DNA of 64,000 bases from Eledone cirrhosa (Eukaryota): contig OZ024740.1 in assembly GCA_964016885.1 (NCBI GenBank), forward strand, positions 397,420,001 to 397,484,000, in the 5' to 3' direction. Positions 8,501 to 60,588 of the stretch are shown here, piece by piece. Numbering within the stretch: the stretch's first letter is position 1; each line of letters starts with the position of its first letter. The position numbers and the translations under genes were made by a program. The notes below the pieces were generated by a model. It worked only from the letters and a program-made list of their open reading frames with translations, did no database searches and had not been told where the DNA came from.

Positions 8501-9199
8501 TATACGTGAACGGCAAAGCATAAACGAACTAAGGAAAAAATTAGAGATAAGAGGGATCAGATGTTGTTTACTCGAGAGAAGGCTACGTTGGTATGGACAC
8601 GTGATGCGCATGAAAGTCGATAGCTGTATAACAAAGTGCAGGGCAATAAAGATAGACGGTAGTCACGGAATAGGCAGACCTAGAAAAACCTGGGACGAGC
8701 TGATAAACTCCGACATCACACACTTACACCTCTCCAAGACAATGTCACTGGACCGAGACCTTTGGCGGTACTCAGTAACAGAGAAGACCCGCCGTACCTA
8801 AATATATAGTAAAACCTACTCCAGCCAGTAGGCATCTCTAACAAAATACACCCCGTCCCACCACCACCACCCCGCCCCATCCACACCACCCCGTTCTATG
8901 TAAAGTTATGTTGGTGCCGCGCCATCGAGGCCGAAACAAATGAGATCGTGTAGGTGTCACGACAAAAAAACACACAGTCCACGCTGTAATGTGGCCGTGT
9001 AGGCAACACGGTAAAACCCTCCCAGACCCACACTGTAAATGTGGTTGGTGTTAGGAAGGGCATACAACTGTAGAAAACCTGCCAGACAGTCCTATGCGAG
9101 CAAGACAATCACTCTTGCCTCAAGTGGGACTACCCCCGTCCAAACCCATGCAAGCGTGGAACACGGACGTTAAACGTTGATGATGATGATGATGATGAT
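5578..9199 (+). mobile_element. full-length RTE-clade LINE (subfamily A)
   Basis: About 53-nt 5' UTR, single APE-RT ORF, about 380-nt 3' UTR, (GAT)n tail; (CA)n(TA)n on both sides. Confidence 0.95.
5631..8801 (+). CDS. RTE ORF, 1056 aa: APE endonuclease + reverse transcriptase + PHD-type zinc finger
   Basis: GTINVGTL, CIQETRW, GDLNGH, QVDYIL, SQHRL (APE); FVDLEKAFD, GVHQGSVLSP, HADD, FRYLG (RT); C4HC3 finger at 8016-8147; RLRWYGHVMR and GRPRKTW (RTE C-terminus). The track start at 5460 lies in microsatellite, so ATG 5631 is the plausible start. Confidence 0.93.
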   Translation: MPKIKTNSPLGRECEHSSLFRPRTANITPSPPAPHRPQPPNAIQNFRVGTINVGTLKGRANEVVEMLERKEVDVCCIQETRWRGGSARFIEGKKRCYKLFWVGNDDGLGGVGIMVAEKWADKIIDVNRVNDRIIKIRLVLNRTTVTVISAYAPQSGLPGTIKDRFYETLMLTTSQISDSDYIIIAGDLNGHVGQHCDGYDEIHGGYGFGTRNEEGSRILEFCDANNLTICNTNFKKRDNHLITYRSGEHTSQVDYILTRRRDRVSVVNTKSLPHEECTSQHRLIISDLIVRMRRTRQQKRTILRRKIWKLKDPTARNKFQSILLDAFDSKEEHLESDNIEGEWEFLKANLLLATDEVCGWSRPVGRRRVTWWWNSKVEGSIKAKKQAWKVWRDGGSREDYQVARREARRQVYLARREAEERKFKHVLQRDDQKREVFRIARQCVKENRDIVGEKCVLNDDGTLAITDADKKVAWKCHYERLLNEENKWEKDSLPHIDPIEGPAVLVEGSIISKAIKDMKTGKAAGPSEIVAEMLKASGTVGHTMVTRIVNQVVQNGVVPKDWHSSIIVNCYKGKGDALDRSNYRGIKLIDQVMKVTEKVIAQLIRERIDLDEMQFGFVSGKSTTDALFIVQQLQEKYLAKGKPLYLAFVDLEKAFDRVPRSIIWWALRKLGVDEWLVRAIQAMYKETVSKVRINNEYSEEFSVKVGVHQGSVLSPLLFIIALQAITEEFKTGCPWELLHADDLTLIAESMAELEKKFQTWKHGLESKGLKINLAKTKVLVCRKENKAAVPSGKWSCSVCRKGVGRNSILCPKCKVWVHKRCSGITGKLTKNIDFTCGRCSGAICSSKCPQNTSSFNCAEGSIEIVDSFRYLGDKISSGGGCSESTVARVRTGWKKFRELIPLLAAKGFSLKMKGRLYDACIRTAMLHGSETWALCAEDIRRLERNEACMLRWMCNSNIRERQSINELRKKLEIRGIRCCLLERRLRWYGHVMRMKVDSCITKCRAIKIDGSHGIGRPRKTWDELINSDITHLHLSKTMSLDRDLWRYSVTEKTRRT

Positions 9200-9240
<41 letters not shown>

Positions 9241-9254
9241 TATATATATATATA

Positions 9255-10439
9255 TTCCGGGAAGTGGCCATGCTCAGTGTGTAGGAAAGGCGTAGGTAGA
9301 AACTCCATTTTGTGTCCCAAATGCAAAGTATGGGTGCATAAAAGATGTAGTGGGATCACAGGTAAGCTAACTAAGAACATAGATTTTACATGTGGCCGGT
9401 GCTCTGGTGCAATAAGTAGCAGCAAGTGCCCACAAAATACTAGCTCTTTCAACTGCGCAGAGGGTTCTATAGAAATAGTGGACAGCTTCCGTTACCTGGG
9501 TGACAAAATCAGCAGTGGGGGAGGGTGCTCTGAAAGTACAGTAGCTAGAGTCAGAACTGGATGGAAAAAGTTCAGAGAGCTTATACCACTATTAGCCGCT
9601 GAAGGGTTCTCCCTAAAAATGAAAGGCAGGTTGTATGATGCCTGCATACGAACAGCAATGTTGCATGGCAGTGAGACCTGGGCATTGTGTGTAGAGGATA
9701 TACGCAGACTAGAGAGGAACGAAGCTTGCATGCTCCGCTGGATGTGTAATAGTAATATACGTGAAGGGCAAAGCATAAACGAACTAAGGAAAAAATTAGA
9801 AATAAGAGGGATCAGATGTTGTTTACTTGAGAGAAGGCTACGTTGGTATGGACACGTGATGCGCATGAAAGTCGATAGCTGTATAACAAAGTGCAGGGCA
9901 ATAAAGATAGACGGTAGCCACGGAGTAGGCAGACCCAGAAAAACCTGGGACGAGCTGTTAAATTCCGACCTCACACACTTACACCTCTCCAAGACAATGT
10001 CACTGGACCGAGACCTTTGGCGGTACTCAGTAATAGAGAAGACCCACCTTACCTAAATACAAAGTAAAACCTACTACAGTCAGTAGGCATCTCTAACAAA
10101 ATACACCCCGTCCCACCACCCCCACCCCATCCACACCGCCCCTTTCAATGTAAAGTTATGTTGGTGCCACAACATCCAGGCCGAAACAAATGAGGTCGTG
10201 TAGGTGTCACGACAAAAAACACACAGTCCACGCTGTAATGTGGCCGTGTAGGCAACACGATAAAAACCTCCCACTGTAAATGTGGTTGGTGTTAGGAAGG
10301 GCATCCAGCTGTAGAAAACCCGCCAGACAGTCCTATGCGAGCAAGACAATCACTCTTGCCTCAAGTGGGAAAACCCCCATCCAAACCCATGCAAGGGTGG
10401 AACACGGACGTTAAACATTGATGATGATGATGATGATGA
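9255..10439 (+). mobile_element. 5'-truncated RTE-A copy
   Basis: ORF 9277-10056 near-identical to the C-terminus of the full-length copy; same 3' UTR and (GAT)n tail. Confidence 0.95.
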
Positions 10440-10474
10440 CACATATATATATATATCTATATATATATATACAC

Positions 10475-10531
<57 letters not shown>

Positions 10532-10533
<2 letters not shown>

Positions 10534-12445
10534 CGGAATGGGATCGTACCGAAGGACTGGCGCAGCAGCATCATCATTAACTGCTACAAGGGTAAAGGTG
10601 ATGCCCTAGATAGGGGAAACTATAGAGGCATTAAATTAATTGACCAGGTCATGAAGGTCACAGAAAAAGTAATAGCGCAACTAATCAGAGAGCGAATTGA
10701 TCTAGACGAAATGCAGTTCGGGTTTGTGTCAGGTAAAAGTACAACAGACGCTCTTTTCATTGTACAACAACTACAGGAGAAGTACCTAGCTAAAAGTAAA
10801 CCCCTATACTTAGTTTTTGTTGACTTGGAGAAAGCCTTTGACAGAGTACCCCGCTCGATTATCTGGTGGGCCCTTAGAAAACTAGGTGTTGATGAATGGC
10901 TTGTGAGAGCTATACAAGCCATGTATAAGGAAACAGTCAGCAAGGTTAGAATTAACAACGAATATAGTGAAGAGTTTAGCGTAAAAGTTGGTGTTCATCA
11001 GGGCTCCGTCCTTAGCCCCCTACTATTTATTATTGCCCTTCAGGCTATAACAGAGGAGTTCAAGACCGGCTGCCCATGGGAACTCCTATATGCAGATGAT
11101 CTAACGCTCATAGCTGAATCAATGGCTGAACTAGAGAAGAAATTCCAAACATGGAAGCATGGCCTAGAATCAAAAGGCCTCAAAATTAACTTGTCTAAGA
11201 CTAAAGTTCTAGTTTGTAGGAAGGAAAATAGGGCACCGGTCCCATCTGAGAAATGGCCATGCTCAGTGTGTAGGAAAGGAGTAGGTAGAAACTCCATTTT
11301 ATGTCCCAAATGCAAAGTATGGGTACATAAAAGATGTAGTGGGATCACAGGTAAACTATCTAAGAACATAGATTTTATATGTGGCCGGTGCTCTGGTGCA
11401 ATAAGTAGCAGCAAGTGCCCACAAAATACTAACTCATTCCATTGCACAGATGGTTCTATAGAAATAGTGGACAGCTTCCGTTACCTGGATGATAAAATCA
11501 GCAGTGGGGGAGGGTGCTCTGAAAGTACAGTAGCTAGGGTCAGAACGGGATGGAAAAAGTTCAGAGATCTTATACCACTATTGGCCGCTAAAGGGTTCTC
11601 TCTAAAAATGAAAGGCAGGTTGTATGATGCCTGCATACGAACAGCAATGTTACATGGCAGTGAGACCTGGGCATTGTGTGCAGAGGATATACACAGACTG
11701 GAGACAAACGAAGCTTGCATGCTCCGCTGGATGTGTAATAGTAATATACGTGAACGGCAAAGCATAAACGTACTAAGGGAGAAATTAGAAATAAGAGGGA
11801 TCAGATGTTGTTTACTCGAGAGAAGACTACGTTGGTATGGTCACGTGATGCGCATGAAAGTCGATAGCTGTATAAAAAAGTGCAGGGCAATAAAAATAGA
11901 CGGTAGCCACGGAGTAGGCAGACCCAGAAAAACCTGGGATGACTTGATAAATTCCGACCTCACACACTTACACCTCTCCAAGACAATGTCACTGGACCGA
12001 GACCTTTGGCGCTACACAGTAATAGAGAAGACCCGCCTTGCCTAAGTACAAAGTGAAACCTACTACAGTCAGTAGGCACCTCTAACAAAATACACCCCAT
12101 CCCACTACCCCCACCCCATTCACACCACCCCTTTCAATGTAAAGTTATGTTGGTGTCACAACATCCAGCCCAAAACAAATGAGGTCGTGTAGGTGTCACG
12201 ACAAAAAAAAAAAAACACAGTCCACGCTGTAATGTGGCCGTGTAGGTAACACGGTAAAAACCTCCCAGTTCCACACTGTAAATGTGGTTGGTGTTAGGAA
12301 GAGCATCCAGCCGTAGAAAACCCGCCAGACAGTCCTATGCGAGCAAGACAACCACTCTCGCCTCAAGTGGGAAAACCCCCCATCCAAACCCATGCAAGCG
12401 TGGAATATGGACGTTAAACGATGATGATGATGATGATGATGATGA
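10532..12445 (+). mobile_element. 5'-truncated RTE-A copy (RT with YADD, PHD, 3' UTR)
   Basis: ORF 10651-12045; WELLYADDL; (GAT)n tail followed by ACACATATATA. Confidence 0.95.
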
Positions 12446-25584: not shown

Positions 25585-26048
25585 GTTTAACGTCCATGTT
25601 CCATGCTTGCATGGGTTTGGACGGGAGTTTTCCCACTTGAGGCAAGAGTGGTTGTCTTACTCGCATAGGACTGTCTGGCGGGTTTTCTACAGCTGGATGC
25701 CCTTCCTAACACCAACCACATTTACAGTGTGGGGCTGGGAGGTTTTTACCGTGTTGCCTACACGGCCACATTACAGCATGGACTGTCTGGCGGGTTTTCT
25801 ACAGCTTGATGCCCTTCCTAACACCAACCACATTTACAGTGTGGGACTGGGAGGTTTTTATCGTGTTGCCTACACGGCCACATTACAGCGTGGACTGTGT
25901 GTTTTTTGTCGTGACACCCACACGATCTCATTTGTTTCGGCCTGGATGTTATGGCACCAACATAACTTTACATTGAAAGGGGCGGTGTGGATGGGGGGGG
26001 CGGGTATTTTGTTAGAGATGCCTACTGACTGTAGTAGGTTTTACTTTG
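25551..26048 (-). mobile_element. RTE-A 3' UTR-only copy with tandem-duplicated core, inserted in an (ATT)n run
   Basis: (GAT)n tail at 25551-25584; (ATT)n on both sides (25530-25550, 26049-26071); about 113-bp internal duplication. Confidence 0.9.
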
Positions 26049-28005
26049 TTATTATTATTATTATTATTATTATACTGGACAAGTATTATGTAAAAATCTT
26101 TGTTAACAGATGAAGCTGGCATGAGTAGACTATACTATGCTGATGAGGTCTAATAGACTCGGTCAGTGCCAGAGTTGGGGAGGCCAAGGGTGAGTAGGGC
26201 AAAATAGAAGAAGCACTTCCAGTCACTGGCTTAATTAGAGTCCAGGACCCTCTCAATTGAAGATGTGAGGACATCAGTCACCGGCACCTGGGCTGCTTTC
26301 GGGATCTTGAGCGGGTTCTTCTGGCGCCGCCTGAACCGAGTGATGTTGACCAGCAAGACATGAGCATCAGACAAGCTCACATTTGGTGGGTAGTGAAAGG
26401 CCACAGCTGTGCTGATGAAGGGAAGAGACAGTTGCTGCACATTGTGGGGGCACTGGAGGTTCATTGTGTCAGGCCAACACAACAAAGGTGGTGGAAACAT
26501 CCACACCTAGAACAGTTCTGGCCTTTCTTCCGCCTATTCGTGGTGGTGCATATGCTGCAGTTGTCGCCTGGTGGGGATGGAGCGTCAGACAGGAAGCCGA
26601 GGACTGGAGCACTATGGGTGTGTGGCTGATTGTCTCCAACCAGGAGACTTAACTCAACGAAGGATGGGTGGAGGGGAGAAACTAGAATCATAAAGAAGTA
26701 GGCAGGGTGATGATGTAAAGGAGGCAGCATGTCTCACCTTCAATAGACCTGAAAGCAACAGCAACCAAAAAATGGGGGGGGGGTAGGAGCATAGAGAGTG
26801 ATCTAAATGGAAAATCTTAGAAATCTATATGTATGTATATATGTAAATACACACACAAACTCCCACTAATACACACACTCCCAAGTTTTCACTATGACAC
26901 CAGAGTATATGTTTTATATACGTGCTTGTATGTGAACATTCTCATGTCCATGTGTGCATGCATAGATATAATTCAGCAAAAAAAAATATATATATATATA
27001 TTAAAATTATTGCATATTCTATTTACTGATGGAATAGTTTGTGCAACAATGTTCACAGGAATCTATATAATGATTTATAACTATGTCTCTTCTTTTGGTT
27101 TTATTGAAGTATATCATGAGATTCATTGAACACTATGAACAATTGTTGTATTAGATTATTTACTTTTTATCTAAAGCAATACTAAATTACATATCATAAG
27201 AACAATGAAATATAACATGTGAAATCCAGAATATAAGATCGGGCTAATTTTAGTTTTATCTTAGTAACACCATCCTAAATCATTCAAGCCTTATATTCAA
27301 ATTACCATTAATACATTCTCTAATTTCCCTTAATATAAAGCCCTCAAAATTTAATTAATTAATGTAATTAATTAGCTATTGTTAAAAACTTTAGCTATTG
27401 TTAAAAACTATGCAGTAAGGCTGATTGTGTGATTTAAAAACTATGTGGTACTGAGCTTCATCCTGCTGTGTAGAAACATACCATATCTTGAGAGACTATC
27501 GGTTAACACTTGGAAAGTTCATCTCCAAGGTGCAGACTTGAGCAAAGATTTTTTAATGGAGAACTACATATGCAACAGAAAGGTAAGAGTGGTTCAAGAG
27601 AAAGGCAAAAGCTGATAGAGCACCTGTGTTGTCACAGACATTACTGTCAGAATGCAAAGTACCAGAACAAATACCACAAGGCATCTCTTTTGTCACTCTA
27701 AGAGTTCTTCCAATCCAACAGCCTGAACAGGTATTTCCTTTATCAATCCTGAAAATATGAATGACAAAGTTGACTTTGGTGAGATCTGGATTCAGAGCAC
27801 AAACAACCACAGCAAGTTCTGCAAGGCATTGTGTCTGATGCTCTAACAACTCTGCAACTTCATCACCTTATAAAATTAAATAAAGTACCAGTCAAGTACT
27901 GAGGTCAGTAAAATATATATATATAGATACAAAATATATATATATATATAAATTAATAAAAACAATGAAATAAAAACAAAGAACAAGTTCCTTATATTAA
28001 AAAAT

Positions 28006-28141
28006 TCATCATTTTACGATCGTTTCTAGGATGTATATGTGTGTTGGTATGTATATCATATAGATCTATGTAAAAATATTACAAATTATCAGAGGAAATA
28101 TACATACCTTCACATATACATGCTGTCTTCAGAAATGATGA
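28006..28141 (-). ncRNA. type-I hammerhead ribozyme (inverted copy)
   Basis: Reverse complement of 29938-30073. Confidence 0.75.
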
Positions 28142-28378
28142 GATTTGTTTATTGAAAAAAAACAACAAAGATTTAATATAAAAGGTCTGTTTGGGAACAG
28201 GTTTTGAATTGACCAATAGAAAAGTAGTTAGAGGTCAAGTTTATAGAATAGTGGTAGTAGAAATTTAATTTAGGAGTAGAGGAGTGCAGACTTTTGTTTT
28301 GAATGAAAAGAATACTTTGGGGATGAAAAGAGGCCAAGCCAGTGAAGGGTACACGAAAATTTGATGTTATTAAAGAAT

Positions 28379-28555
28379 TGAATTGGCAGTATCGGTAGAG
28401 GGTCAGACATGCTTTCTAGCATAGTTACGTCCCTTTACGATCTGAGTTCAAATCCCGCCGAGGTTAACTTTGCCTTTCATCCTTACGAGGTCGATAAAAT
28501 AAAGTACCAGTAATATACTGGGTAATTGCTGGCCTTGTGCCAAAAAGTAGAAACA
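28379..28555 (+). mobile_element. tRNA-derived SINE inserted in the left PLE arm
   Basis: TSD GTTATTAAAGAAT at 28366-28378 and 28556-28568; the empty site is preserved in the right arm near 29700-29715. Confidence 0.92.
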
Positions 28556-28919
28556 GTTATTAAAGAATAATGTTAAAAACGAAGGAAAATAGAATTTTAG
28601 GGTAAGAGTATTAGTGAGAAATACCAATCTTATTTAAACCACAAGGAATCTAGATCTATAACAAGAAATTAAATTAATTGATAGATATACTTATAGGGAT
28701 AAATTTATATTAATTCATATGAATATGATAAATAAGAATTAAATGTTATTAAAGAGTGTTGTTAAAAACGAAGGAAAGTAAAATTTGGGGATAAGGGTAG
28801 TAGTGAGAAATACCAATCTTATAAAATCTACAAGGAATCTATATTCATAACAGGAAATTAAATTAATTTATAGGTATACTTTTAGGTATTAATTTTAGGT
28901 ATTAATTTTATTAACTTAT

Positions 28920-29223
28920 TCATATATAGGAGCTACGTCTAACCAATTTAAAGTAAGATTTAATACCCACAAACATAGTTTTAAAAATGCCGCATTAGCT
29001 AATACAACATCCTTGGCTGAAACAATTAATAATTATAGAAAGAAGAATATAGATTACAACCTGACCTGGAGTGTGCTCAAAAGGGCCACCCCCTTATCAA
29101 AATAACAGATATGAGTGTAGGTTATGCTCCCAGGAACTTTTTGAAATCATGAAATCTAAGGAATTAATTATATCTTGCAATCATAGAATTAGAAGAACCT
29201 TCAAATATTATAAACCTAATTAA
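28920..29223 (+). pseudogene. GIY-YIG endonuclease C-terminal half of a PLE
   Basis: SYIGATSNQFKVRFNTHKHSF...TSLA...YNLTWSVLKRATP, one frameshift, then YQNNRYECRLCSQE...SCNHR; YIG, R..H..SF, CxLCxxE and CxH motifs typical of PLE endonucleases (Naiad-like). Confidence 0.85.
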
Positions 29224-29937
29224 TATACACCTTACACTTATATTTTACATATTATTATATTAACCTATAATTAGTACTACAGAGAACTTCATAATTTTAT
29301 TTCCCTCTTACAGCTCTCTTTTCCTAAAGTAAATACCTAAAAGTATACCTATAAATTAATTTAATTTCCTGTTATGAATATATATTCCTTGTAGTTTATA
29401 TAAGATTGGTATTTCTCACTACTACCCTTATCCCAAAATTTTACTTTCCTTCGTTTTTAACAACACTCTTTAATAACATCTAATTCTTATTTATCACATT
29501 CATATGAATTAATATAAATTTATCCCTATAAAGTGTTGGTGCTTATGACCCTCCCAAAGTATAACAATATCCCTATAAATATATCTATCAATTAATTTAA
29601 TTTCTTGTTATAGATCTAGATTCCTTGTAGTTTAAATAAGATTGGTATTTCTCACTAATACCCTTACCCTAAAATTCTATTTTCCTTCGTTTTTAACATT
29701 ATTCTTTAATAACATCAAATTTTCGTGTACCCTTCACTGGCTTGGCCTCTTTTCATCCCAAAGTATTCTTTTCATTCAAAACATAAGTCTGCACTTCTCT
29801 ACCACTAAATTAAATTTCTACTACCACTATTCTATAAACTTGACCTCTAACTGCTTTTCTATTGGTCAATTCAAAACCTGTTCCCAAACAGACCTTTTAT
29901 ATTAAATCTTTGTTGTTTTTTTTTCAATAAACAAATC

Positions 29938-30073
29938 TCATCATTTCTGAAGACAGCATGTATATGTGAAGGTATGTATATTTCCTCTGATAATTTGTAA
30001 TATTTTTACATAGATCTATATGATATACATACCAACACACAAATACATCCTAGAAACGATCGTAAAATGATGA
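29938..30073 (+). ncRNA. type-I hammerhead ribozyme with 99-nt stem II
   Basis: Helix I TCATCATTT/AAATGATGA, CTGAAGA, long stem II, GAAA, palindromic helix III ACGATCGT, GUA cleavage triplet. Confidence 0.8.
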
Positions 30074-30259
30074 ATTTTTTAATATAAGGAACTTGTTCTT
30101 TGTTTTTATTTCATTGTTTTTATTAATTTATCTTGACTCTGTTTTCCTATGATTTTCATCGAAAATTTTTGAATGCATCTTCTCTTTTCATGATATTTGG
30201 ATTACATTGAGTTCTTCATATGGATTGGACACTACCGTATATTTTGGTAGATTTATCTA

Positions 30260-30260
30260 C

Positions 30261-30312
<52 letters not shown>

Positions 30313-30337
30313 ATATAGGTATATATATATGTATATA

Positions 30338-30382
<45 letters not shown>
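30260..30382. repeat. (TA)n microsatellite, left edge of RTE nest 2
   Basis: Direct reading. Confidence 0.95.
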
Positions 30383-30386
<4 letters not shown>

Positions 30387-31146
30387 TCATCATCATCATC
30401 ATCACCGTTTTACGTCCGTTCTTCCACGCTAGCATGGGTTAGACGGGTTGTCCTGTTGTGGGCAGTGTCTGGTCGGCTGACCATGCCTTGCTCATACAGG
30501 AACTGATCTGGCTTGATTTCTACAGCTGGATGCCCTTCCTAACACCAACCTCATTTACAGTGAGTGCTGGGTGCTTTTTCGTGGCGCCTACACGTCCACT
30601 TTACAGTGTGGGCTGGGTGCTTTTTTGCCGTGGCACCTCCACGACCACCTTGCGGTGGGGGGGGGGGGGGGGCATATTGTTTATATGCTTCAGCATGTAC
30701 CCATGGGAGGTCGGGTACCCTGTATTACTGCGTGACGCCAGAAGTCACGGTCGTGTGTCATTGACTTTGAGAGGTGTAGTTGGGTAAGGTCGGCTTTTAT
30801 CACCTCATCCCAAGTCATCTTGGGTCTCCCCACTCCGCGGTTTCCATCAACTTCTAGTGCTCTGCACCTTTTTATGCAGCTGTCATCCTTCATACGCATC
30901 ACATGTCCATACCAGCGTAACCGCCTCTCCTGCACGCAGCATTTGATTCCTCTTATGCTCAGTCTCTCTCTCAATTCATTTATGCTTTGTCGTTCACGTA
31001 TATTACTGTTACACATCCATCGGAGCATGCAGGCTTCGTTTCTCTCTAATCTACGTAAGTCTTCCACCTTCAGCGCCCAGGTCTCACTACCATGCAACAT
31101 CGCTGTTCGGATACACGCATCATACAGTCTGCCTTTCATTCTGAGG

Positions 31147-31149
<3 letters not shown>
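30383..31149 (-). mobile_element. RTE subfamily B 3' fragment
   Basis: ORF 30690-31331(-) RTE C-terminus; distinct 3' UTR; (GAT)n tail. Confidence 0.93.
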
Positions 31150-31223
<74 letters not shown>

Positions 31224-31227
31224 TATA

Positions 31228-31947
31228 TTGGTACGGTCACGTGATGCGCATGAAAGACGACAGCTGTATAACAAAGTGCAGGGCAATAAAGATAGACGGT
31301 AGCCACGGAGTAGGCAGACCCAGAAAAACATGGGACGAGCTGATAAATTCCGACCTCACACGCTTACACCTCTCCAAGACAATGTCACTGGACCGAGACC
31401 TTTGGCGGTACTCAGTAATAGAGAAGACCCGCCTTACCTAAATACAAAGTAAAAACCTACTACAGTCAGTAGGCATCTCTATCAAAACACACCCCCGTCC
31501 CACCACCTCCACCCCATCCACACCGCCCCTTTCAATGTAAAGTTATGTTGGTCCCACAACATCCAGGCCGAAACAAATGAGATCGTGTAGGTGTCACGAC
31601 AAAAAACACACAGTCCACGTTGTAAATGTGGCCGTGTAGGCAACACGGTAAAAACCTCCCAGCCCCACACTGTAAATGTGGTTGGTGTTAGGAAGGGCAT
31701 CCAGCTGTAGAAAACCCGCCAGACAGTCCACGCTGTAATGTGGCCGTGTAGGCAACACGGTAAAAACCTCCCAGCCCCACACTGTAAATGTGGTTGGTGT
31801 TAGGAAGGGCATCCAACTGTAGAAAACCCGCCAGACAGTCCTATGCGAGCAAGACAACCACTCTTGCCTCAAGTGGGAAAACCCCCGTCCAAACCCATGC
31901 AAGCGTGGAACACGGACGCTAAACCTGATGATGATGATGATGATGAT
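31228..31947 (+). mobile_element. RTE-A 3' fragment with duplicated 3' UTR core
   Basis: ORF 31241-31441; tandem duplication about 31611-31836. Confidence 0.93.
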
Positions 31948-31950
31948 ACA

Positions 31951-32012
<62 letters not shown>

Positions 32013-32042
32013 TATATTGGTACGGTCACGTGATGCGCATGA

Positions 32043-33192
32043 GAAAGACTAAGGTCCTTGTAAGTAGACGAGAAAACAGAACCCAGATCCCCTCAGGGAA
32101 ATGGCCTTGCTCAGTATGTAGGAAAGGTGTAGGTAGGAACTCCATTCTCTGCCCCAAATGCAAACAATCGGTACACAAGAGATGTAGCGGGATCTCAGGA
32201 AGCTTAATTAAGAATGTAGGATTCACATGCAGCAGCTGTGCTGAAACAGCAAGCAAACAGCCACAGGAAACAAGTACCACCAATCTCTGGGAGGGCCCTG
32301 TAGAAACAGTAGACAGCTTCTGCTACCTAGGTGACCGAATTAGCAACGGAGGTGGGTGCTCAGAAAGTACAATAACTAGGGTAAGAACGGGATGGAAGAA
32401 GTTTAGGGAACTACTACCACTGCTAGCTGCAAAAGGATTCTCCCTCAGAATGAAAGGCAGACTGTATGATGCGTGTATCCGAACAGCGATGTTGCATGGT
32501 AGTGAGACCTGGGCGCTGAAGGTGGAAGACTTACGTAGATTAGAGAGAAACGAAGCCTGCATGCTCCGATGGATGTGTAACAGTAATATACGTGAACAAC
32601 AAAGCATAAAGGAATTGAGAGAGAGACTGAGCATAAGAGGAATCAAATGCTGCGTGCAGGAGAGGCGGTTACGCTGGTATGGACATGTGATGCGTATGAA
32701 GGATGACAGCTGCATAAAAAGGTGCAGAGCACTAGAAGTTGATGGAAACCGCGGAGTGGGGAGACCCAAGATGACTTGGGATGAGGTGATAAAAGCCGAC
32801 CTTACCCAACTACACCTCTCAAAGACAATGACACACGACCGTGACTTCTGGTGTCACGCAGTAATACAGGGTACCCGACCTCCCATGGGTACATGCTGAA
32901 GCATATAAACAATATGCCCCCACTCCCCCCACCGCAAGGTGGTCGTGGAGGTGCCACGGCAAAAAAGCACCCAGCCCACACTGTAAAGTGGACGTGTAAG
33001 CGCCACGAAAAAGCACCCAGCACTCACTGTAAATGAGGTTGGTGTTAGGAAGGGCATCCAGCTGTAGAAGTCAAGCCAGATCAGTTCTTGTATGAGCAAG
33101 GCATGGTCAGCCGACCAGACACTGCCCACAACAGGACAACCCGTCTAACCCATGCTAGCGTGGAAGAACGGACGTAAAACGGTGATGATGAT
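32043..33192 (+). mobile_element. RTE-B 3' fragment (PHD to tail)
   Basis: ORF 31928-32899; near-identical to 30383-31149 in inverted orientation. Confidence 0.93.
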
Positions 33193-33231
33193 ATATATAT
33201 ATATACAGTATATATATATATATATATACAG

Positions 33232-33637
33232 TCATCATCATCATCATCATCATCATGTTTAGCGTCCGTGTTCCACGCTTGCATGGGTTTGGACGGGGGT
33301 TTTCCCACTTGAGGCAAGAGTGGTTGCCTTGCTCGCATAGGACTGTCTGGCGGGTTTTCTACAGTTGGATGCCCTTCCTAACACCAACCACATTTACAGT
33401 GGGGCTGGGAGGTTTTTACCATGTTGCCTACACGGCCACATTACAGCGTGGACTGTCTGGCGGGTTTTCTACAGCTGGATGCCCTTCCTAACACCAACCA
33501 CATTTACAGTGTGGGGCTGGGAGGTTTTTACCGTGTTGCCTACACGGCCACATTTACAGCGTGGACTGTGTGTTTTTTGTCGTGACACCTACACGATCTC
33601 ATTTGTTTCGGCCTGGATGTTGTGGGACCAACATAAC
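33232..33637 (-). mobile_element. RTE-A 3' UTR fragment with duplicated core
   Basis: Shares diagnostic variants (GGTCCCAC, TGTAAATGTGGCC, GGACGCTAAA) with 31228-31947. Confidence 0.92.
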
Positions 33638-33682
33638 AGTATATATATATATATACATATATATGTATAAATATATATATAT

Positions 33683-35355
33683 AGGTGATTAGGGAAATGA
33701 AAAATGGTAAGGCGGCCGGACCATCGGGAATAGTTGCTGAGATGCTGAAGGCATCAGGGGACGTAGGCACTAAACTGGTTGCACGCATCATCAATCAGGC
33801 TATATATGGTGGTGTCATACCCAAAGACTGGTGCAGCAGTATTCTCATAAATTGCTACAAAGGTAAAGGGGATGCTTTGGAGAGGAGCAATTATTGGGGT
33901 ATAAAACTGATAGATCAGGTTATGAAAGTGGCAGAAAGGATTTTAGCACAACTAATTAGAGAAAGGGTCAAACTAGATGAGATGCAGTTTGGTTTTGTGC
34001 CTGGGAAGAGTACAACAGATGCCCTCTTCTTGGTGAGACAAATGCAAGAGAGGTTCTTAGAGAAGAATAAGCCACTATACTTAGCCTTTGTTGACCTAGA
34101 GAGGGCCTTTGATAGGGTACCCCGATCTGTCATCTGGTGGTCCCTAAGGAAGCTAGGTGTTGAGGAATGGCTTGTGAGGACAGTGCAAACTTTGTACAGA
34201 GGTACTCTCAGTAAAGTCAGGGTAGGAATGGAGTTTAGTGAGGAATTCCAGATAAAAGTAGGAGTACATCAGGGTTCGGTCCTCAACCCGCTCTTGTTCA
34301 TTATAGTCCTCCAAGCCATAACAGAGGAGTTTAAGACTGGCTGTCCATGGGAACTTCTCTATGCTGACGATCTGGTTCTTATAGCAGAATCAGTAGAGGA
34401 GCTAGAGAATAAATTCTGGCTATGGAAACAGCAGTTGGAAGCAAGAGGACTGAGAGTGAATCTAGCTAAGACAAAAGTGTTGATGAGTAGAAAAGAGGAC
34501 AAAACCCTGATTCCGTCAGGGAAATGGCCATGTTCGATATGCAGAAAAGGAACTGGTATAAATTCTATAAAATGCACACAATGCAGATCCTGGGTACACA
34601 AGAGATGTAGCGGGATAGCAGGCAAACTAACAGGTAGGGAGAAATATGTATGCAGTAGATGTACAGGGAAATTAGACAGTAGAAGTCGCACTGATAGACA
34701 CATTTTTCAAATGCAAGAGGGCGCTATAGAAGTGGTGGATAGCTTCCGGTACCTAGAAGATCAGATTAGCATGGGAGGAGGGTGTTCCGAGAGCATAGTA
34801 TCTAGAATAAGGACGGGTTGGAAGAAGTTTAGGCCGCTGCTTCCTCTGTTGACGAAGAAGGGTTTCTCCCTGCGTACGAAAGGCCGGTTGTATGATGCCT
34901 GTGTGAGGAGCTCGATGCTGCATGGTAGCGAGACATGGGCAGCAACTGCAGAGGATATGCGACGGCTGGAGAGAAATGAGGCAAGCATGCTCCGTTGGAT
35001 GTGCAGTGTAAATGTATGCAGCATAAATGTGTTGAGAGAGAAACTGTGTCTGAGAGGGATAGAATGTAGTGTACGAGAGAGGAGACTGAGGTGGTATGGA
35101 CATGTGATGCACATGGAGGATGACCGATGGGTGAAGAAGTGCCAGGAAATGCCAGTTGAAGGAAGACGTGGGAGAGGTAGACCACGAAAAACATGGGTGG
35201 AGGTGGTGAGAACAGACCTCAGATCATTGAAGCTCACGGTGGAGATGACGAGGGACCGTGACGAGTGGAGAGATGCTGTGCTGAATAAGACCCGTCCCAC
35301 CCTTGCAAGCAGGGAAAAGCGGACGTAAAATTATGATGATGATGATGATGATGAT
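33683..35355 (+). mobile_element. RTE subfamily C, 5'-truncated; open RT-PHD ORF 33685-35328; essentially no 3' UTR
   Basis: FVDLERAFD, GVHQGS, YADD, C4HC3; the ORF stop lies a few nt before the (GAT)n tail. Confidence 0.95.
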
Positions 35356-36072
35356 ATAGTAATATACGCGAACGGCAAAGCATAAATGAACTAAGTGAGA
35401 AATTAGGAATAAGAGGGATCAGATGCTGTTTACTTGAGAGAAGACTACATTGGTATGGTCAAGTGATGCGCATGAAAGACGACAGTTGTATAAAAAAAGT
35501 GCAGGGCATCAAAATTGATGGAAGTTACGGAGTAGGCAGGCCCAGAAAAACCTGGGACGATTTGATAAATTCCGACCTTACACATTTACACCTCTCTAAG
35601 ACAATGTCACTGGACCAAGATCTTTGGCGCTACGCAGCAATACAGAAGACTCACCTTGCCTATGTACAAAGCAAAACCTACAGTCAGTAGGCACCTCTTA
35701 ACCAAATATACACCCATCCCATTACTCCTACTCCACCACCCCCACTCCCGCCAACACCACCCTTTCTCTGTAAAGTTATGTTGATACCACAACATCCAGT
35801 CCTAAATAAATGAGGTTGTGTAGGTGTCACGACAAAAAAACACACAGTCCATGCTGTAATGTGGCCATGTAGGTAACACGGTAAAAACCTCCCAGTCCAC
35901 ACTGTAAACGTGGTTGGTGTTAGGAAGGGCATCCAGCCGTAGAAAACCTGCCAGACAGTCCTATATGAGCAGACATGGTCACCCGACCAATCTTGCCTCA
36001 AGTGGGACAATTCCCGTCTAAACCCATGCTAGCGTGGAAGATAGACATTAAAAGATGATGATGATGATGATG
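35356..36072 (+). mobile_element. RTE subfamily D 3' fragment abutting the tail of the C copy
   Basis: ORF 35463-35690 RTE C-terminus with frameshift; 3' UTR and (GAT)n. Confidence 0.9.
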
Positions 36073-36723
36073 AAGATATATAATATATATATATATACAC
36101 ATACATATAATGAATAAAAATTTTTGGGGAAGACAAGAAAATGAATGAATACAGACAGTCCTATCTCATCAGTCAACTGCTAGAGATACATTGTTTCAGT
36201 GCTCTAAGAGTAATACAACTAGCTGTAATTCACAAGGGGCAGTAACAAATGGACAAAGGACAAAACAATAGTCTTAACGACTATATACAAATAAGAGAAA
36301 ACTTGCCACTAACCCACGAGCTGCAACTGAAAAGATATTGGTGCGGCCCAACAAGAGGAAGAAGTAGAAGAGAAGGTGAGAGAGATAAAAAATATACAAA
36401 TGTTAATAAAAGTATTTTCTGTTTGGACATTAAGTCCTAAAAAGACAGGCATAACAAGCAGAGGAAAAGAGAGAGTAAGTGAAGAAAGACAGACAAATGC
36501 AGAGGCATAAGATAAATGTATATATATATATATATATATATTATGATAAAACACAAGTGTCATATAAAAACCACTTTGTGCTAGGTTTCTTTGATAATTT
36601 GATATCTTCCTCCTAACCCCCTTCTATCTCTTACAACCTTTGACAATGTAGTCAGTAGTCAAATGGGAAGCTGTCTATAGCTACCTACCTATTTATCTGT
36701 CTATCTATCAATCTATCTATCGC

Positions 36724-36800: not shown

Positions 36801-36947
36801 AATTTTTATAATCCATAAATAACATTTTCGAAAAATACACAAGTGGAAATAAAACAGTGCAATCAATTATTGCGGAAAAATATCTTACCTTCTCCAATAA
36901 AATATATTATGTATTTTGCGAAATCCAGAGATTTTCAATAACGACCA

Positions 36948-37403
36948 GAAGTCAACCCTAAATATTACTAATAGCTCCAGGAAAGCCATGAACGATACCA
37001 CATCTTTTTAACTTTGATTTTGAAAGTAGGTTTATAATTATCAATTATCATTATACTTTTGTAGCTGTCTCGGTGGCCTAGTTGGACGAATCATAGACAG
37101 TGGTGATCTTGGTCTGAAGTTTGATCCTGGTCAGGAGTAGGGTTCCCAATAAACCTTTTCAGTTTTTTTTCTATGGGTTGTAAAATAAAAACTGAAAAGG
37201 GTTACATGTACCTCTTGACCAGGATTGAATCCAAGGTCAGGATCTCCACCGTCTCTAGTACCTACCGCTAGGCCACAGAGAAAACTACGAAAATCTTATG
37301 AAAATTCATACTTATAAACCTACTTTCAAAATTTTCAAAATAAAGTGTTGTGGTGTTGTTCATGTCTTTCTTAATGTTATCACTCCTACTTAAAGTCGAC
37401 TTC
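36948..37403. mobile_element. fold-back element with two convergent tRNA-like Pol III units
   Basis: Diverged arms 36948-37170 and 37182-37403; each has TTTATAA, A box TGGCCTAG(TT/C)GG, B-box-like motif and T-run. Confidence 0.7.
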
Positions 37404-37510
37404 TAAATCATTTGGGTGTTCCATAAACATCCTCGTTTTGTTTCATATCTATCTAGACTATATTTTAACCTGTAATCCATGTTTCATTTCAGTTGCATTT
37501 CATTCCCCCA

Positions 37511-37886: not shown

Positions 37887-37918
<32 letters not shown>

Positions 37919-37926
37919 ATATATAT

Positions 37927-38590
37927 AAATGTATATATAGTGTATTTTGCAATACACTGTATGCTTAATTAAAAGCATTTTGAAGACCATACGCTATTGT
38001 TTTAAAATAGTGACAATATCACTTACTTAAATTTCTTTTTCAACAAACAGGGGAGATAAGCTGACAGAGCTCTGTTTCGTACTTGTTGGTACTCTCCCTG
38101 TTTGCTGAAAATTATGTGTGTTGGATTCTTATAGAATTCCAGTAATAATCAGGAACTGATTATACAGAGCGGTCGCCGGTCCAGCAGAAATTGAAAATTA
38201 GAATTAGTGCTCTGAAATAGCGATATATATATATATGAATGTATATATAATGTATTTTGCAATACACTGTATGCTTAATTAAAAACATTTTGAAGACCAT
38301 TATTTTGAAGACTGATTATTACTGGAATTCTATAAGAAACCAACACACATAATTGTCAGCAAACAGGGAGAGTAGTGAGCTTTGATAAGTACCAACAAGT
38401 ACGAAACGCAGCTCTGTCAGCTTATCTCCCCTGTTTGCTGAAAAAAAAATTTAAGTAAGTGACATAGTCACTACTTTAAAACAATAGCGTAAGGTCTTCA
38501 AAATGCTTTTAATTAAGCATACAGTGTATTGCAAAATACACTGTATATACATTCCTATATATATCGCTATTTCAGAGCACCAATTCTAAT
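37927..38590. mobile_element. non-autonomous PLE-like fold-back element
   Basis: Arms 37927-38151 and 38312-38552 are inverted, with a partial direct repeat at 38238-38300; TA flanks; hammerhead motif. Confidence 0.75.
38377..38423 (+). ncRNA. degenerate minimal hammerhead
   Basis: GAGCT TTGATAA GTAC-CAACAA-GTAC GAAAC GCAGCTCT GTC AGCTT; the inverted copy has the perfect palindrome ACAGAGCTCTGT but lacks the first core strand. Confidence 0.55.
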
Positions 38591-39049: not shown

Positions 39050-39790
39050 TGCTAGATGGAGAGTCTGAAGAATGTGAACACTCAATGTCAATGTCAAAGA
39101 TAAAGATAAATTCACCTCCTGTTGCCGGACGAGAATGTAAGGACTCCTCGTTATTTCCGACACGGATGGCTAACATAATCCCATCCCCCTCACCTCTCCC
39201 TGCGCCTCCAACCCATCCTTTCCACCCACCCAACGAAATCCAAAACTTCAGAGTTGGCACCATGAATGTAGGCACCTTACAACGTCGCTCAAATGAGGTT
39301 GTAGAGATGCTTGAACGTAAGGAAGTTGATGTTTGCTGTATTCAAGAGACCAGGTGGAGGGGTGGGTCTGCTAGATTCACTGTGGGTAAAAAACGATGCT
39401 ATAAACTTTTCTGGGTTGGAAATGACAATGGGCTGAGTGGAGTAGGAATCATGTTAGCAGAAAAATGGGTAGATAAGGTAATTGCCATAAATAGAGTGAA
39501 CGACAGAATAATTAAAATAAGACTAGTCCTAAACAGAACTACTGTGACAATAATATCCGCTTATGCACCCCAATCTGGCGCTATAAAAGACAGATTCTGA
39601 GTCACTAATGCTCACTTCATCCCAAATAACCGACAGTGACTACATAATTATTGCTGGCGACCTAAATGGTCATGTTGGACAATATTGTGACGGCTATGAC
39701 GGAATCCATCGAGGCCATGGGTTTGGTACTAGAAATGAGGAAGGCTTCAGAATCCTGGAATTCTGTGATGTTAATAACCTAACTATCTGT
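39050..39790 (+). mobile_element. RTE 5' fragment (N-terminus + APE), disrupted
   Basis: ORFs 39049-39600 and 39608- align with aa 1-230 of the full-length ORF. Confidence 0.92.
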
Positions 39791-40629
39791 GCGCTCGGAG
39801 AAACTCTAGGCGTAGAGGAAGACGAATTGGCCAGTCTGTTCAGGAGGACCTTCCGCCCGGGACCGATGGACAACTTCCAAAAGTCCCTGGCCTGGCAGTG
39901 CTACCGAGGAGCTCTACCAGTTCGAGACAAGCTCTACAGACATGGGCGCCCGGCAGTGACCCTTCGAAAAAGATCTGTCCGAGATGCGTGCGAGACGAAG
40001 AAACCGTCACACACGCATTAATACACTGCCCGGGTGTTACCGACCTGTGGGGCTATGTAGGACGACTATTGTCGCAGGTGGGACCAATCCGGTTGACCAC
40101 CGAGTCCATTGTCATGATCAAACCGCCAGCCTCCTTCAAAAACGAAGGAGAGGCGGTTTTCCTTTGTGTGATAGCTATGGCGAAAGAGGTTGTATGGTGG
40201 ACGAGGTTAAAAGGACTGAGGTCAGACACCTTTATCTCTGGCCAACAACTGATTCTTTTTTCAAATACCACTTTGGAAGAAGAATCAGGATGGAGAGAGA
40301 GGTGCTGTACCCCAGCAAGTTTTATGAAAGGTGGGTGAAAGTGGCAAGAATGGCCCGAGTGAATGGGCCTTCTCTCTATATCAGCCTGTAGGTTGAGGAA
40401 AAAGAGGAAGAGAGGAAAGGGGTACAAACTCTTTGTACTCCTGGAGATGAGGGTTGCACATTTTTTCAGGGGTATGTGTTACCCATATGAAATGTCTCCC
40501 CCTATTGGGGAAAATCGATTAATTTTTAAATTGCATTTGTGATAGTATTTTACACGTTTTTATTGTATGTAAACTTCCCTCTTTGTATTTGTCCCCTTCT
40601 TTTGTGCCCCTGTGGCTAATAAAGAAACA
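39791..40629 (+). mobile_element. Tx1-like LINE 3' fragment fused to the RTE piece
   Basis: Near-identical to 54562-55394(-); CPRC..EETVTHALIHCP zf-RVT; ends AATAAAGAAACA. Confidence 0.9.
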
Positions 40630-41289
40630 TATCTATCTGTCTGTCTGTCTATCTGTCTATTTATCTACCTAACTATCTATCTACATATATGCATATCTAT
40701 ATTCTTACATACCTCTCAATATATCTACCTACCAACTACCTAATTATTTGACTGTTTTACTGTAAAACTGTAGTTATATATTTATGAATATATGTTAAGA
40801 TAGGTTTGTGTAATTACATAATTATATTTATTATGTGCATTTCAGTAATGCTAACACATTGTAGTTATGCAGTTACAACAATGACAGCTAACATGACATC
40901 ATCAGACAGTTACATAAGAATAATTCTGCATGAAAGTCTATATCAGAAAACAAAGTTGTTGATATATTTATGCCAATGTATCTTCAGCAAAGCACAAATC
41001 CCAATAGGAGTCTGAAAATAAATAGATGGACAAACAGACAGACACATAGGAAGAACAAAAACACCAAATTTAAAGGATATATGTTTATTGAGGTTTAAAG
41101 AAAATATGGAAAATAATTATTGTAATTGAATCAAATAAATGTAAAATGAAATATGGCAATGGCTGGAGTGACAAAAGAAATAAAGTGAAGGAAAGTGGAG
41201 GATTTAAGTGTCTTACATTGAATGTTGTAACCATAGAATTATCAAATTAATTATGTGCTGCCAGACACTGATGGCACTTTACCAGCTGA

Positions 41290-45785: not shown

Positions 45786-46036
45786 GAAGGTGCATGGCTT
45801 AGTGGTTAGAACATTGGGCTTGCAATTGAAAGGTTGTGAGTTCAATTCTCGGACCGGGTGATGTGTTGTTTCCTTGAGCAAGACACTTTATTTCACATTG
45901 CTCCAGTTTACTCAGCTGTAGAAATGAGATGATAGGGACTGGGGTTCCTATCATTAAATCCCCTAAGACACCTCACAGCTCGCACCTATGCAGCTAAACC
46001 TGCATAGGTGCGAGCTGTCACACACACACACACACA
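45786..46036 (+). mobile_element. tRNA-head SINE with Meta-like central domain, 19-bp terminal hairpin and (CA)n tail
   Basis: A box TGGCTTAGTGG, B box GAGTTCAATTC, TCCTTGAGCAAGACACTT core; ACAAGAGC repeated on both flanks. Confidence 0.85.
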
Positions 46037-50108: not shown

Positions 50109-50458
50109 GAGACACATGGCTTAGTGGTTAGAGCATTGGCCTTGCAATCGAAAAGTTGTGAGTTAAATTCTCAGACCGGGTGATGTGTTGTTTCCTTGAG
50201 CAAGACACTTTATTTCACATTGCTCCAGTTTACTCAGCTGTAGAAATGAGATGATAGGGTCTGGTGTCCCTATCATTCCACTGCAAAGTGGTCGTGGAGG
50301 TGCCACGGCAAAAAAGCACCCAGCACTCACTGTAAATGAGGTTGGTGTTAGGAAGGGCATCCAGCTGTAGAAATCAAGCCAGAATCAGTTCCCGTCCCAC
50401 CCTTGCAAGCAGGGAAAAGCAGACGTAAAATTATGATGATGATGATGATGATGATGAT
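50109..50458 (+). mobile_element. chimeric SINE: same head as 45786 + RTE-B 3' UTR segment + RTE-C terminus + (GAT)n
   Basis: 50109-50277 matches 45786-45955; about 50283-50390 matches parts of 32935-33086; 50391-50458 matches 35291-35355. Confidence 0.88.
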
Positions 50459-51535
50459 TGGTAGTATTGCTTAGTTGTTCTTTTGTAATATATATATAGC
50501 TACTGAATTTTGTAATATTCCTATTGGAACATATTTTAGAGTGCTCTATTCATGGAATAATAGCAGACCTGTTGTTTTGTGTCCAGATTGCTTATGGGTG
50601 ACACCAGTACACTGAAGGTCAGTGAGGAGTGAAAGGTGGTATCATTTGTATAGAAGGGTGTGGTGTTAATAGCAATGTACAGATGGAAGAGTTTATGCAA
50701 CACAAGCAAACATGGAGCACACCAGAGGTGATAAAATGTAGATTAGAAAATGTACAATTGATGCACATTGTAATGGGTTGATCTGATGGAAAACACCTGA
50801 CACAAGAAATGAGATGAATGGATGCCCAATTCCACTAGCAGGGTCATTTTGCCAAAGAATCTTTTATCAGACATGATTGGTAACTTTGCTTACATGAAAA
50901 GGGCAATAATATTGCTCCCATCAAAGTTCTCACAGGTCAGAGGTCACTGATGTGTGACAAATTTACACTAGATCTGGAAATAAATCCACTGAAAATGTTT
51001 TCCATTTCGACAACATTTGTGGACTTCAAGTCAATATTCACCCTAACAATCTCCTGAAGCTTTTACTAATACATGCTCAATCTCTGCAATGCTGAATGTT
51101 TTGTTTTTAATTCTATGCAGTAACATATGCTAGTGGAAAGGGAATAGTAAGTGCACGTGTGTGTGTGAGAGAGAGGGGTAGACAGACAGACAGGCAGACA
51201 GACAGAACTAAAAGAGGAATTACATTTTAAAACATGTCACATTGTGGGAAAGGGGTGGTTGGAGTGTGTGCATGAAAAAGTAGCTTGTTATATAAATTTA
51301 TTCAATTTATTTTGTTGTGCTGTATAAATATAATTAAATACCCTATATATGTATATCTCCTTATAATATATAACCAGCAATTTCGCTGTCTGTCTGTCCG
51401 ACAGTGGAAACACGTGCGCGCATGCGAATGTTTTTTGCGCACGCGACGCGTAGAGAGAGAGTGAGAATGAAAGAAAGAGATAGACTACAAGAGGGGGATA
51501 GCGGGAGGGAGAGAGGGGGGAATTGAGGAGTGCTA

Positions 51536-51738
51536 CAGAAACATATATACATTTCTGTGTGTGTGTAATATATATATATATACACACACAGAAATATATA
51601 TATATACACACAGAAATATATATACATTTCTGTGTGTGTAATATATATATATATACACACAGAAATATATATACATTTCTGTGTGTGTAATATATATATA
51701 TATACACACAGAAATATATATACATTTCTGTGTGTGTA

Positions 51739-51769
<31 letters not shown>

Positions 51770-51960
51770 GAAATATATATACATTTCTGTGTGTGTAATA
51801 TATATATATATATATACACACAGAAATATATATATATTTCCGTGTGTGTATATATATATATATTACACACACAGAAATGTATATATATTTCTGTGTGTAT
51901 ATATATATATATTACACACACAGAAATGTATATATATATACACACAGAAATATATATACA
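51536..51960. repeat. about 42-bp hairpin minisatellite, block 1, partly inverted
   Basis: Unit CACACAGAAATATATATACATTTCTGTGTGTGTAA(TA)n; orientation flips near 51830-51940. Confidence 0.9.
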
Positions 51961-52200
51961 TCCCTTAGCTACTGTATTGTATCTGTTGCTATCTCTCTCT
52001 CTCTCCAGCTATCCCTCTCTTTTAGTCTGTCTGTTTCTCTCACTCTCACTCTTTCTCTTTGTAACACACTAACATTCCTCCCCTCTATCACTGTGAAGAA
52101 TGGGGAGATGGAGGAGGAGGAGGAGGAGAGAGTCACTTCGTCACTTCACCTCTGCCTTTCTTTCTCTCCCCTCTCACTCCCTCATTACGTACAGACATTA

Positions 52201-54386: not shown

Positions 54387-54791
54387 TAATTTATAAATAA
54401 ATCATTTAAAATGTCATATTTATCTTTAATACTTAATAGTTATTTCTAATTAAACTGTGGAGTTTCCCTGGGGTCAGCTATTAAGAATTAATAAAGAAAT
54501 AGGAAAAATCTTTAATATAAAAGATTAAACTCAAAACCAGTTATATTTTTAATGTAATATATGTTTCTTTATTAGCCACAGGGGCACAAAAGAAGGGGAC
54601 AAATACAAAGGGGGAAGTTTACATTCAATAAAAACGTGTAAAATATTATCACAAATGCAATTTAAAAATCAATCGATTTCCCCCAATAGGTGGAGACATT
54701 ACATATGAGTAACACATACCCCCGAAAAAATGTGCAACCCTCATCTCCAGGAGTACGAAGAGCGAGCACCCCTTTCCTCTTTTTCCTCAAC

Positions 54792-59763: not shown

Positions 59764-60263
59764 TTTTAATGTAATATAATTCCCTAATCAGGTAATGTGT
59801 TGTGTCTTCGAACAAGAGACTACAATTTTCCCCCAGTTCACTCAGCTAAATATGAGTACCAGTGGCAGCTGGGAGTTAGTCATGTGATGGATACCATCTT
59901 GTCTAGAGTGAAGTTTTGTATGCTCATTCATTTAACATCTATGAAACCGGGATAAGCTATGGGCTTTGTCCTACCTGTGCAAACATGGAATAATGGATGA
60001 AGTCAATAACTAACACACTCTGTCATATATACATATATGTATATATATTTAAATATAAGTATGTATACATACATACATATATGTATACAGACGTACAGTA
60101 GTATGTATATATACATACATGCACACATATATATATATGTACGTATGGGTTTACTGAACATTTATTATAATGTTCGGTTTGTATGTAAACAAACAGCCCG
60201 AATTATTAGCCGTACAGTATTCGGCAACCATCGTTGCCATTTTGTTCAACACTGACAAAGGAG

Positions 60264-60304
60264 CGATGAACTAGTTTCTAACTTATTAGCTGTCATCAGC
60301 ACCG
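60264..60304 (-). ncRNA. minimal type-I hammerhead
   Basis: CGGTG CTGATGA CAGCT-AATA-AGTTA GAAACTAGTT CATCG; helix III palindrome AACTAGTT. Confidence 0.7.
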
Positions 60305-60588
60305 TATACCTTCCTGTCAATTGATTGAATGTTTGAAAGTATATACTTTCCTTATGTATATTAACGGCTGAGCAGCCTAATTTGCATATCGAGTGAGTTA
60401 GTCGGCCGGGCGTACCGAAAACGATAAATGGAGAAAATGAAATTTCATTTCTCATTCTTCATTTTTTCCATTTATCGTTATGCCCGGCCGACTAACTCAC
60501 TCAATATGCAAATTAGGCTGCTCAGCCATTAATATGCATAAGGAAAGTATATACTTTCAAACGTTCAATCAACTGACAGGAAGGTATA

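Follow-up and report, generated by a model that had tools for sequence, protein, structure and literature searches.

How the 5′ ends of APE-type LINEs are joined to their targets, and what sets the second nick, are open questions in the literature (PMC2881922, PMC6895275; here and below, statements on a cited source concern the excerpted part of that source). The locus described here bears on both. It is a TA-repeat tract crowded with six retrotransposon (LINE) fragments, and one of these, a copy termed A+, is flanked by a duplicated block that ends in element sequence. What history of insertion could place retrotransposon sequence inside a target site duplication (TSD)? We addressed this question in the window, i.e., the whole stretch of 64,000 nucleotides that was analysed, whose positions are used throughout.

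The duplicated block and its surroundings

The fragments follow each other in the order B-, A+, B+, A-, C+ and D+ within a TA microsatellite. The features of this nest are as follows:

30261-30384, no strand: left TA tract of the nest
30383-31148, minus strand: B-, family B copy in inverted orientation, separated from B+ by 9 substitutions over 742 columns (family-majority or common allele at 7 of them)
31149-31189, no strand: (TA)20 tract upstream of block copy 1
31187-31253, plus strand: duplicated block, copy 1, A-TA-CAG-(TA)14-CAG-TATAT and 25 nt of RTE-A (31229-31253)
31229-31946, plus strand: A+, 5′-truncated RTE-like family A copy with the ORF end, a 3′ UTR with a 112-bp tandem duplication and a (TGA)7 tail
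31946-32042, plus strand: duplicated block, copy 2, A-TA-CAG-(TA)29-CAG-TATAT and the same 25 nt (32018-32042, the scrap)
32043-33191, plus strand: B+, 5′-truncated family B copy, open for 284 codons from 32045, with a PHD finger
33192-33232, plus strand: third microsatellite unit, (TA)7 CAG (TA)10 CAG T, after the B tail
33232-33636, minus strand: A-, family A copy in inverted orientation, separated from A+ by 3 substitutions over 379 columns, CAGT on both flanks
33637-33686, plus strand: CAG (TA)8 CA (TA)3 and onwards, where the compound TA target continues
33687-35354, plus strand: C+, third RTE-like family copy, 5′ boundary approximate
35356-36077, plus strand: D+, older A-like copy adjoining the C tail

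A first-pass annotation of this DNA had described a repeat at 31188-31253 and 31947-32042 that ends in about 25 nt of RTE sequence, and both copies are indeed found at these positions. In copy 1, TACAG (31188-31192) is followed by (TA)14, CAG (31221-31223), TATAT and the 25-mer; in copy 2, TACAG (31947-31951) is followed by (TA)29, CAG (32010-32012), TATAT and the 25-mer. Counting one shared left-hand A, the copies measure 67 nt and 97 nt and start 759 bp apart. They are 100% identical over their final 61 nt, the length of the TA tract being their sole difference. The direct repeat begins directly after the tail of A+ and ends at its 5′ junction, as a TSD would, and its 67/97 bp lie outside the RTE range of 7-15 bp. 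Copy 1 was said to continue in frame into RTE-A and copy 2 to jump to a different position of RTE-B; the reading frame and a gap-free alignment to other A copies agree on the former, and copy 2 enters B in frame 657 nt upstream of the collinear B position. Folding of the block is unremarkable (z -1.1).

The same annotation did not include the third microsatellite unit (33192-33232), the CAG(TA)8 at 33637 or the oppositely oriented, almost identical counterparts of B (30383-31148) and A (33232-33636). The presence of a third CAG(TA)10CAG unit indicates that the compound microsatellite unit was copied at least twice, and this unit is likely the right-hand target duplication of B. The target before insertion was probably (TA)n CAG (TA)m CAG (TA)8 with m = 10-14, and whichever of A+ and B+ came first would already have duplicated 33-53 bp of it. 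The locus shows a route by which insertions can multiply compound microsatellite units. TACAGTA occurs in the TA tracts at 31188-31194 and at four more sites up to 33210; it is similar to the footprint that Tc1/Sleeping Beauty elements leave on excision, and the CAG interruptions may have begun in this way.

Within 30383-33636 lie two pairs of oppositely oriented, almost identical copies (B-/B+, 98.8%; A+/A-, 99.2%), other copies in the window being more distant; one site was struck repeatedly by the same subfamilies. Twin priming was rejected as the source of the inversions: a tail is present on all four copies, and B- is without the private changes of B+.

The A, B and C elements appear to be RTE-like LINEs, a label taken from the first-pass annotation and from their general anatomy. 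More specifically, a single long ORF encodes AP endonuclease and reverse transcriptase (RT), as in the RTE clade: the near-full A copy at 5751-8768 aligns across residues 46-1049 of P0001 (Exo_endo_phos, RVT_1, PHD). The 3′ ends consist of short tandem repeats, with (GAT/TGA)3-8 tails on A+, A-, B+, B-, C+ and D+. The 3′ UTR measures about 290 nt in B+ and about 490 nt in A+, compared with the 177 bp of SR3, an instance of the unusually short 3′ UTR of the RTE clade (PMC1291365). The few protein matches that carry a name include some from octopus (54-55% identity), and an octopus is the likely host. A PHD finger directly follows the RT domain in the LINE ORFs at 32045-32896 and 5751-8768 (Pfam PHD above cut-off in B), as it does in many relatives. 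The 112-bp tandem duplication in the 3′ UTR marks an A subfamily, being present in A+ (31610-31841), A- (33340-33572) and the 25.5-kb copy (25663-25898).

The 25-nt piece and its junction with B

The 25-mer encodes WYGHVMRM and was assigned to family A. It has nine sites with at most 6 mismatches in the window and is exact at two of them, the two block copies; four A-like copies differ by 1-2 mismatches, B's own equivalent motif (starting at 32675) by 4 and a C copy by 5. The sequence CAGTATAT stands before the 25-mer at none of the seven other sites, so the junction between target and element was itself duplicated. Two independent insertions would hardly have broken at one and the same base and met identical target letters there, and we therefore take the block to be a true duplication.

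At the other side of the scrap, the first seven bases of B+, GAAAGAC, equal nt 24-30 of A+ and overlap the last two bases of the scrap. A match of this type between random positions of A and B has a chance of 3-5e-4, for a motif picked once it had been noticed. GAAAGTC stands at the matching position in three of the four other A-like copies, which suggests that the pairing partner was probably A+ itself or a member of its subfamily.

The bases natively upstream of B's truncation point were searched for in several ways. An exact DNA scan gave 0 matches; a wider search gave 13 related loci at just 28-43% identity, with best proteins at 55% and 63%. Among 109 homologues the residues before KTK vary, M (47) and G (52) being the commonest. 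The read survey covered the stretch 32004-33180 in 4 of the 14 listed runs. It indicates that B is a very high-copy family and provided allele shares. Among the reads listed for this stretch (24 of 2224 loose ends and 40 of 357 variants), none carried B's native upstream bases, none of the 24 loose ends spanned 32042/32043 and none represented an empty allele with one block copy. In X12, 38% of plus-direction reads at 32023 are without the T present in other A-like copies of the window, and the read joints in X12 that go back to about 32017 would be A-family reads fitting the scrap, not support for the junction.

Possible histories of A+ and B+

From sequence comparison, we tentatively favour, at slightly under even confidence, an origin of the block as a TSD formed when A cDNA annealed to a 25-nt A-type piece that was probably already present at the 5′ end of an earlier B insertion. 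Priming of B would have taken place within the TA tract, 14 nt ahead of the first CAG. When reverse transcription was almost complete, it would have changed template at GAAAGAC and copied 25 nt of an A RNA belonging to the subfamily of A+; B would then have joined after CAGTATAT, duplicating about 45-53 bp. A would then have nicked between TA and CAG in the left copy, and the AT-rich 58-67 bp to the right would have opened. Pairing of the top-strand end bearing the 25-mer with A cDNA would have set the truncation point of A and duplicated a block of about 60 bp. A- and B- would have inserted later, the TA tracts slipping to 14, 29 and 10 units. What the sequence itself shows is that there are three CAG(TA)nCAG units, that the 25-mer occurs twice in identical form, that copy 1 passes into A without a seam, that the tail of A+ is followed by TA-CAG, and that B begins with 7 nt also present in A+ (nt 24-30).

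In the observed order, annealing of A to an earlier B is the only history we found that gives both elements standard target-primed ends, each with repeat, insert, tail and repeat. The tail of A+ is followed by TA-CAG, and a C lies within two TA units of the tail in 6 of 8 A-like copies (5 of 7 excluding A+); given this consistency, A+ seems to have been truly primed at its 3′ end, and an origin of that end by template jump is less likely. Also in favour are the GAAAGAC shared at the junction between scrap and B, and the CACA(TA)n units that flank each of the three A copies in the second nest of the window (5579-12445) and resemble target duplications of 20-35 bp; units of this size thus appear to be duplicated at these microsatellites. 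Against it, RTE TSDs are typically far shorter, and those readable elsewhere in the window (A-, the 61.4-kb copy and the 50.1-kb SINE) are only 4-5 bp. Two uncommon steps are required, a 25-nt RNA switch and a later insertion of the same subfamily. TA length differs most in the pair that ought to be the youngest (14 vs 29, with 10 in the third unit), the X12 reads without the T at 32023 speak against it as well, and junction and order are unconfirmed among the listed reads of 32004-33180 in the 4 of 14 runs.

The order of the two insertions was assessed from substitutions. One of the differences between A+ and A- falls on A+. Between B+ and B-, the two sites other than the seven at which B- has the family majority or a common allele lie in a C-run (among the 40 of 357 variants listed); since B- bears the majority or common alleles at these seven, it would be a younger, independent insertion relative to B+, whose private change is 0.5-0.9%. 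Counts in matched regions, 7 differences in 742 bp on B+ vs 1 in 379 on A+, give a ratio of 6.4:1 for B as the oldest and fit A+ and A- postdating B+. The 5′ 313 bp of A+ hold up to 6 further substitutions unseen in other window copies, which may be subfamily traits. With six count sets, the odds of B as the oldest over A+ as the oldest are 6.4, 1.7, 1.9, 0.58, 0.37 and 0.10, the reversal to 1:10 arising when every 5′ difference of A+ is taken as private and the count for B+ is restricted to its strongly private changes. Dating by substitutions leaves the order of B+ and A+ undecided (6.4:1 to 1:10). The annealing model of the first-pass annotation is partly supported, in that it provides standard ends for both elements; its requirement that B came first is left undecided, and A-first histories with a later swap yield the same letters.

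Several other histories were considered. In one, A came first and B joined 25 nt inside the 5′ end of A, either with a TSD of 70-78 bp or because its cDNA invaded a homologue that carried A, at GAAAGAC, and the segments were later swapped by unequal crossover, misaligned gene conversion or circle re-integration via CAG(TA)nCAG repeats, leaving A before B. The same target junction and the subfamily letters of both 25-mers are then explained without coincidence, both tail junctions stay genuine, exchanging two segments between three identical units yields exactly the observed order as a matter of sequence logic, and some dating variants favour A first by up to 10:1. Such a history nevertheless needs a still longer duplication and one or two extra recombinations over only 30-50 bp of homology, and matched-region dating favours B first (1.7-6.4:1); we consider it unlikely, at about one chance in four. 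A further possibility is that B was primed at the tail of an earlier A and the break end took the 5′ junction of A, at a distance of about 700 bp, as its template for the block, as in the templated insertions of L1 (bioRxiv 10.1101/2024.08.27.596794) and in repair-mediated duplications (PMC2671141), with which the locus shares a short local segment duplicated at a junction. Just two events in the observed order suffice, the 7-nt microhomology fits, L1 templated insertions below 250 bp exist (22 cases, bioRxiv 2024.08.27.596794), a size within which the block falls (67-97 bp), and closely linked repair duplications reach 619 bp (PMC2671141). But L1 templates typically lie within 15 bp of the site (bioRxiv 2024.08.27.596794), and here the distance is 759 bp start-to-start, with a template that would span another element's 5′ junction. 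The tail-TACAG end of A would also become a jump site, though it matches the usual priming context of the family (5 of 7 other copies), and we regard this history as improbable.

Both remaining accounts seem to us very improbable, the second marginally more so. An assembly artefact would mean that the true order is B then A (B in A, with a long TSD) and that the assembler swapped segments or made a chimera. Three identical units do make two segments interchangeable in an assembly graph, and the 32042/32043 junction is not among the reads listed for 32004-33180. Against this, the anatomy at each junction is biologically plausible, and the 64 kb of the window contain no N, with inverted copies of 97-99% identity and long microsatellites kept separate, which suggests that the assembly rests on long reads. 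Alternatively, a single A event made both pieces: an abortive second-strand start would have copied 25-30 nt of A cDNA and folded back to pair with B at GAAAGAC; once the loop had been repaired, this cDNA would itself have integrated on the new homology. Identical junctions and subfamily would be accounted for and the 7-nt match used, at the price of a bottom-strand loop repair before completion and several steps without direct sign. A tandem A dimer whose second copy was deleted by B was rejected as unparsimonious, the B flank having (TA)7 vs one TA at A.

Generality and comparison with known systems

The preferred reading, in which A annealed to a piece carried by an earlier B, was examined for further cases. 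Among the 12 tail-bearing elements of the window, A+ is the only one whose first 8 or more bases are repeated within 110 nt after its own tail, and these 12 include no second TSD ending in collinear element sequence. This counts against the preferred reading and also against the proposal of the first-pass annotation that older RTE debris sets where later copies are truncated. Nor does the scrap fit its description as older debris, being identical to A+, not visibly older and located at the 5′ junction of B. It is doubtful, and in our view distinctly unlikely, that TA-nesting RTE-like LINEs choose their second-strand joining point by searching for homology over as much as about 60-70 bp beyond the first nick in the downstream direction, that template-switch scraps programme later truncation points and TSD lengths, and that a genome-wide class of such TSDs is to be expected in nests. 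We treat the A+ junction as a variant, seen at this one locus, of a way of joining that other retrotransposons are known to use; in view of the rival histories it is a lead and not a result. If B was first, it would be a natural case of homology-chosen second-strand joining outside R2 and L1, with 25 nt of downstream homology and a duplication of about 60 bp.

In the 'Anneal' 5′ junctions of R2, cDNA pairs with homologous target, for which as little as 11 bp is enough (PMC11331408), an observation in favour of annealing at A+. These junctions are seamless and keep a single copy of the shared sequence (PMC11331408); that of A+ is likewise seamless and collinear within the homologous stretch. 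R2 was studied as a site-specific transgene in cultured cells, with upstream homology and no long duplication (PMC11331408), whereas A+ is a natural APE-type LINE with homology about 60 bp downstream of the nick that is itself retrotransposon sequence. L1 double-TPRT/MMEJ is similar in that truncation falls where internal cDNA anneals to the end of the target, and in L1 models the position of the second nick may depend on microhomology (PMC2912911, PMC2881922). Human L1/Alu TSDs are about 15 bp, unlike the duplication of about 60 bp at the A+ locus. Microhomologies at L1 5′ junctions comprise a few bases, and the homology at A+ 25 nt. Chimeric L1s, formed when new cDNA recombines with a resident L1 to leave deletions or duplications, were reportedly described by Gilbert in 2002 and 2005 and by Symer in 2002. 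There too the new copy joins a pre-existing homologous element seamlessly; those cases are said to concern cultured human cells and longer homologies, and A+ a 25-nt piece in a mollusc-like germline genome.

The families described here share with the RTE clade, including the octopus RTE-2_OV (likened by description), a single ORF for APE and RT, a triplet-repeat tail, 5′ truncation and TA-like cut sites (PMC9115989, PMC6007223). They differ in the PHD finger after the RT and in a duplication 4-8 times the usual 7-15 bp, the range of most RTE TSDs (PMC6007223). TSDs of APE-type LINEs measure 10-20 bp, and 126 bp in R9, i.e., distant cuts exist (PMC6895275). TSDs ending in element sequence are not mentioned in the excerpted parts of PMC1291365, PMC9115989, PMC13282606 and PMC13295347, and we found no description of such RTE TSDs in the literature searched, mainly the main texts of papers outside subscription.

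Elsewhere in the window, A-like tails at 9198, 10439, 12445, 31946, 33232 and 61416 stop at a C-interruption of the TA tract, and both B copies end within pure TA, which suggests a family-specific nick preference inside microsatellites. Other readable 5′ junctions overlap the target by about 1-3 nt, as judged by eye. In the second nest (5579-12445), a family A LINE of nearly full length leads, and two truncated A copies come after it in head-to-tail arrangement. A SINE-like element at 50115-50457, with ATTGG on either side, combines a tRNA-like head (by eye; 94% to 45793-45955) with a B-like part of the 3′ UTR, and its last 65 nt are 98% identical to the 3′ end of the C element. At 39059-40632, family A is represented by a tailless 5′ fragment; the 840-bp segment that comes next has an inverted copy (93%) 14 kb away at 54559-55394. 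A foldback-type element (27948-30131) has terminal inverted repeats of about 430 bp (98%) with inner inverted repeats nested within, and is interrupted at 28379-28562 by a short dispersed repeat. Long near-palindromes of 460-810 bp lie at 36947-37404, 37917-38564, 51452-52058, 60045-60846 and 62893-63375.
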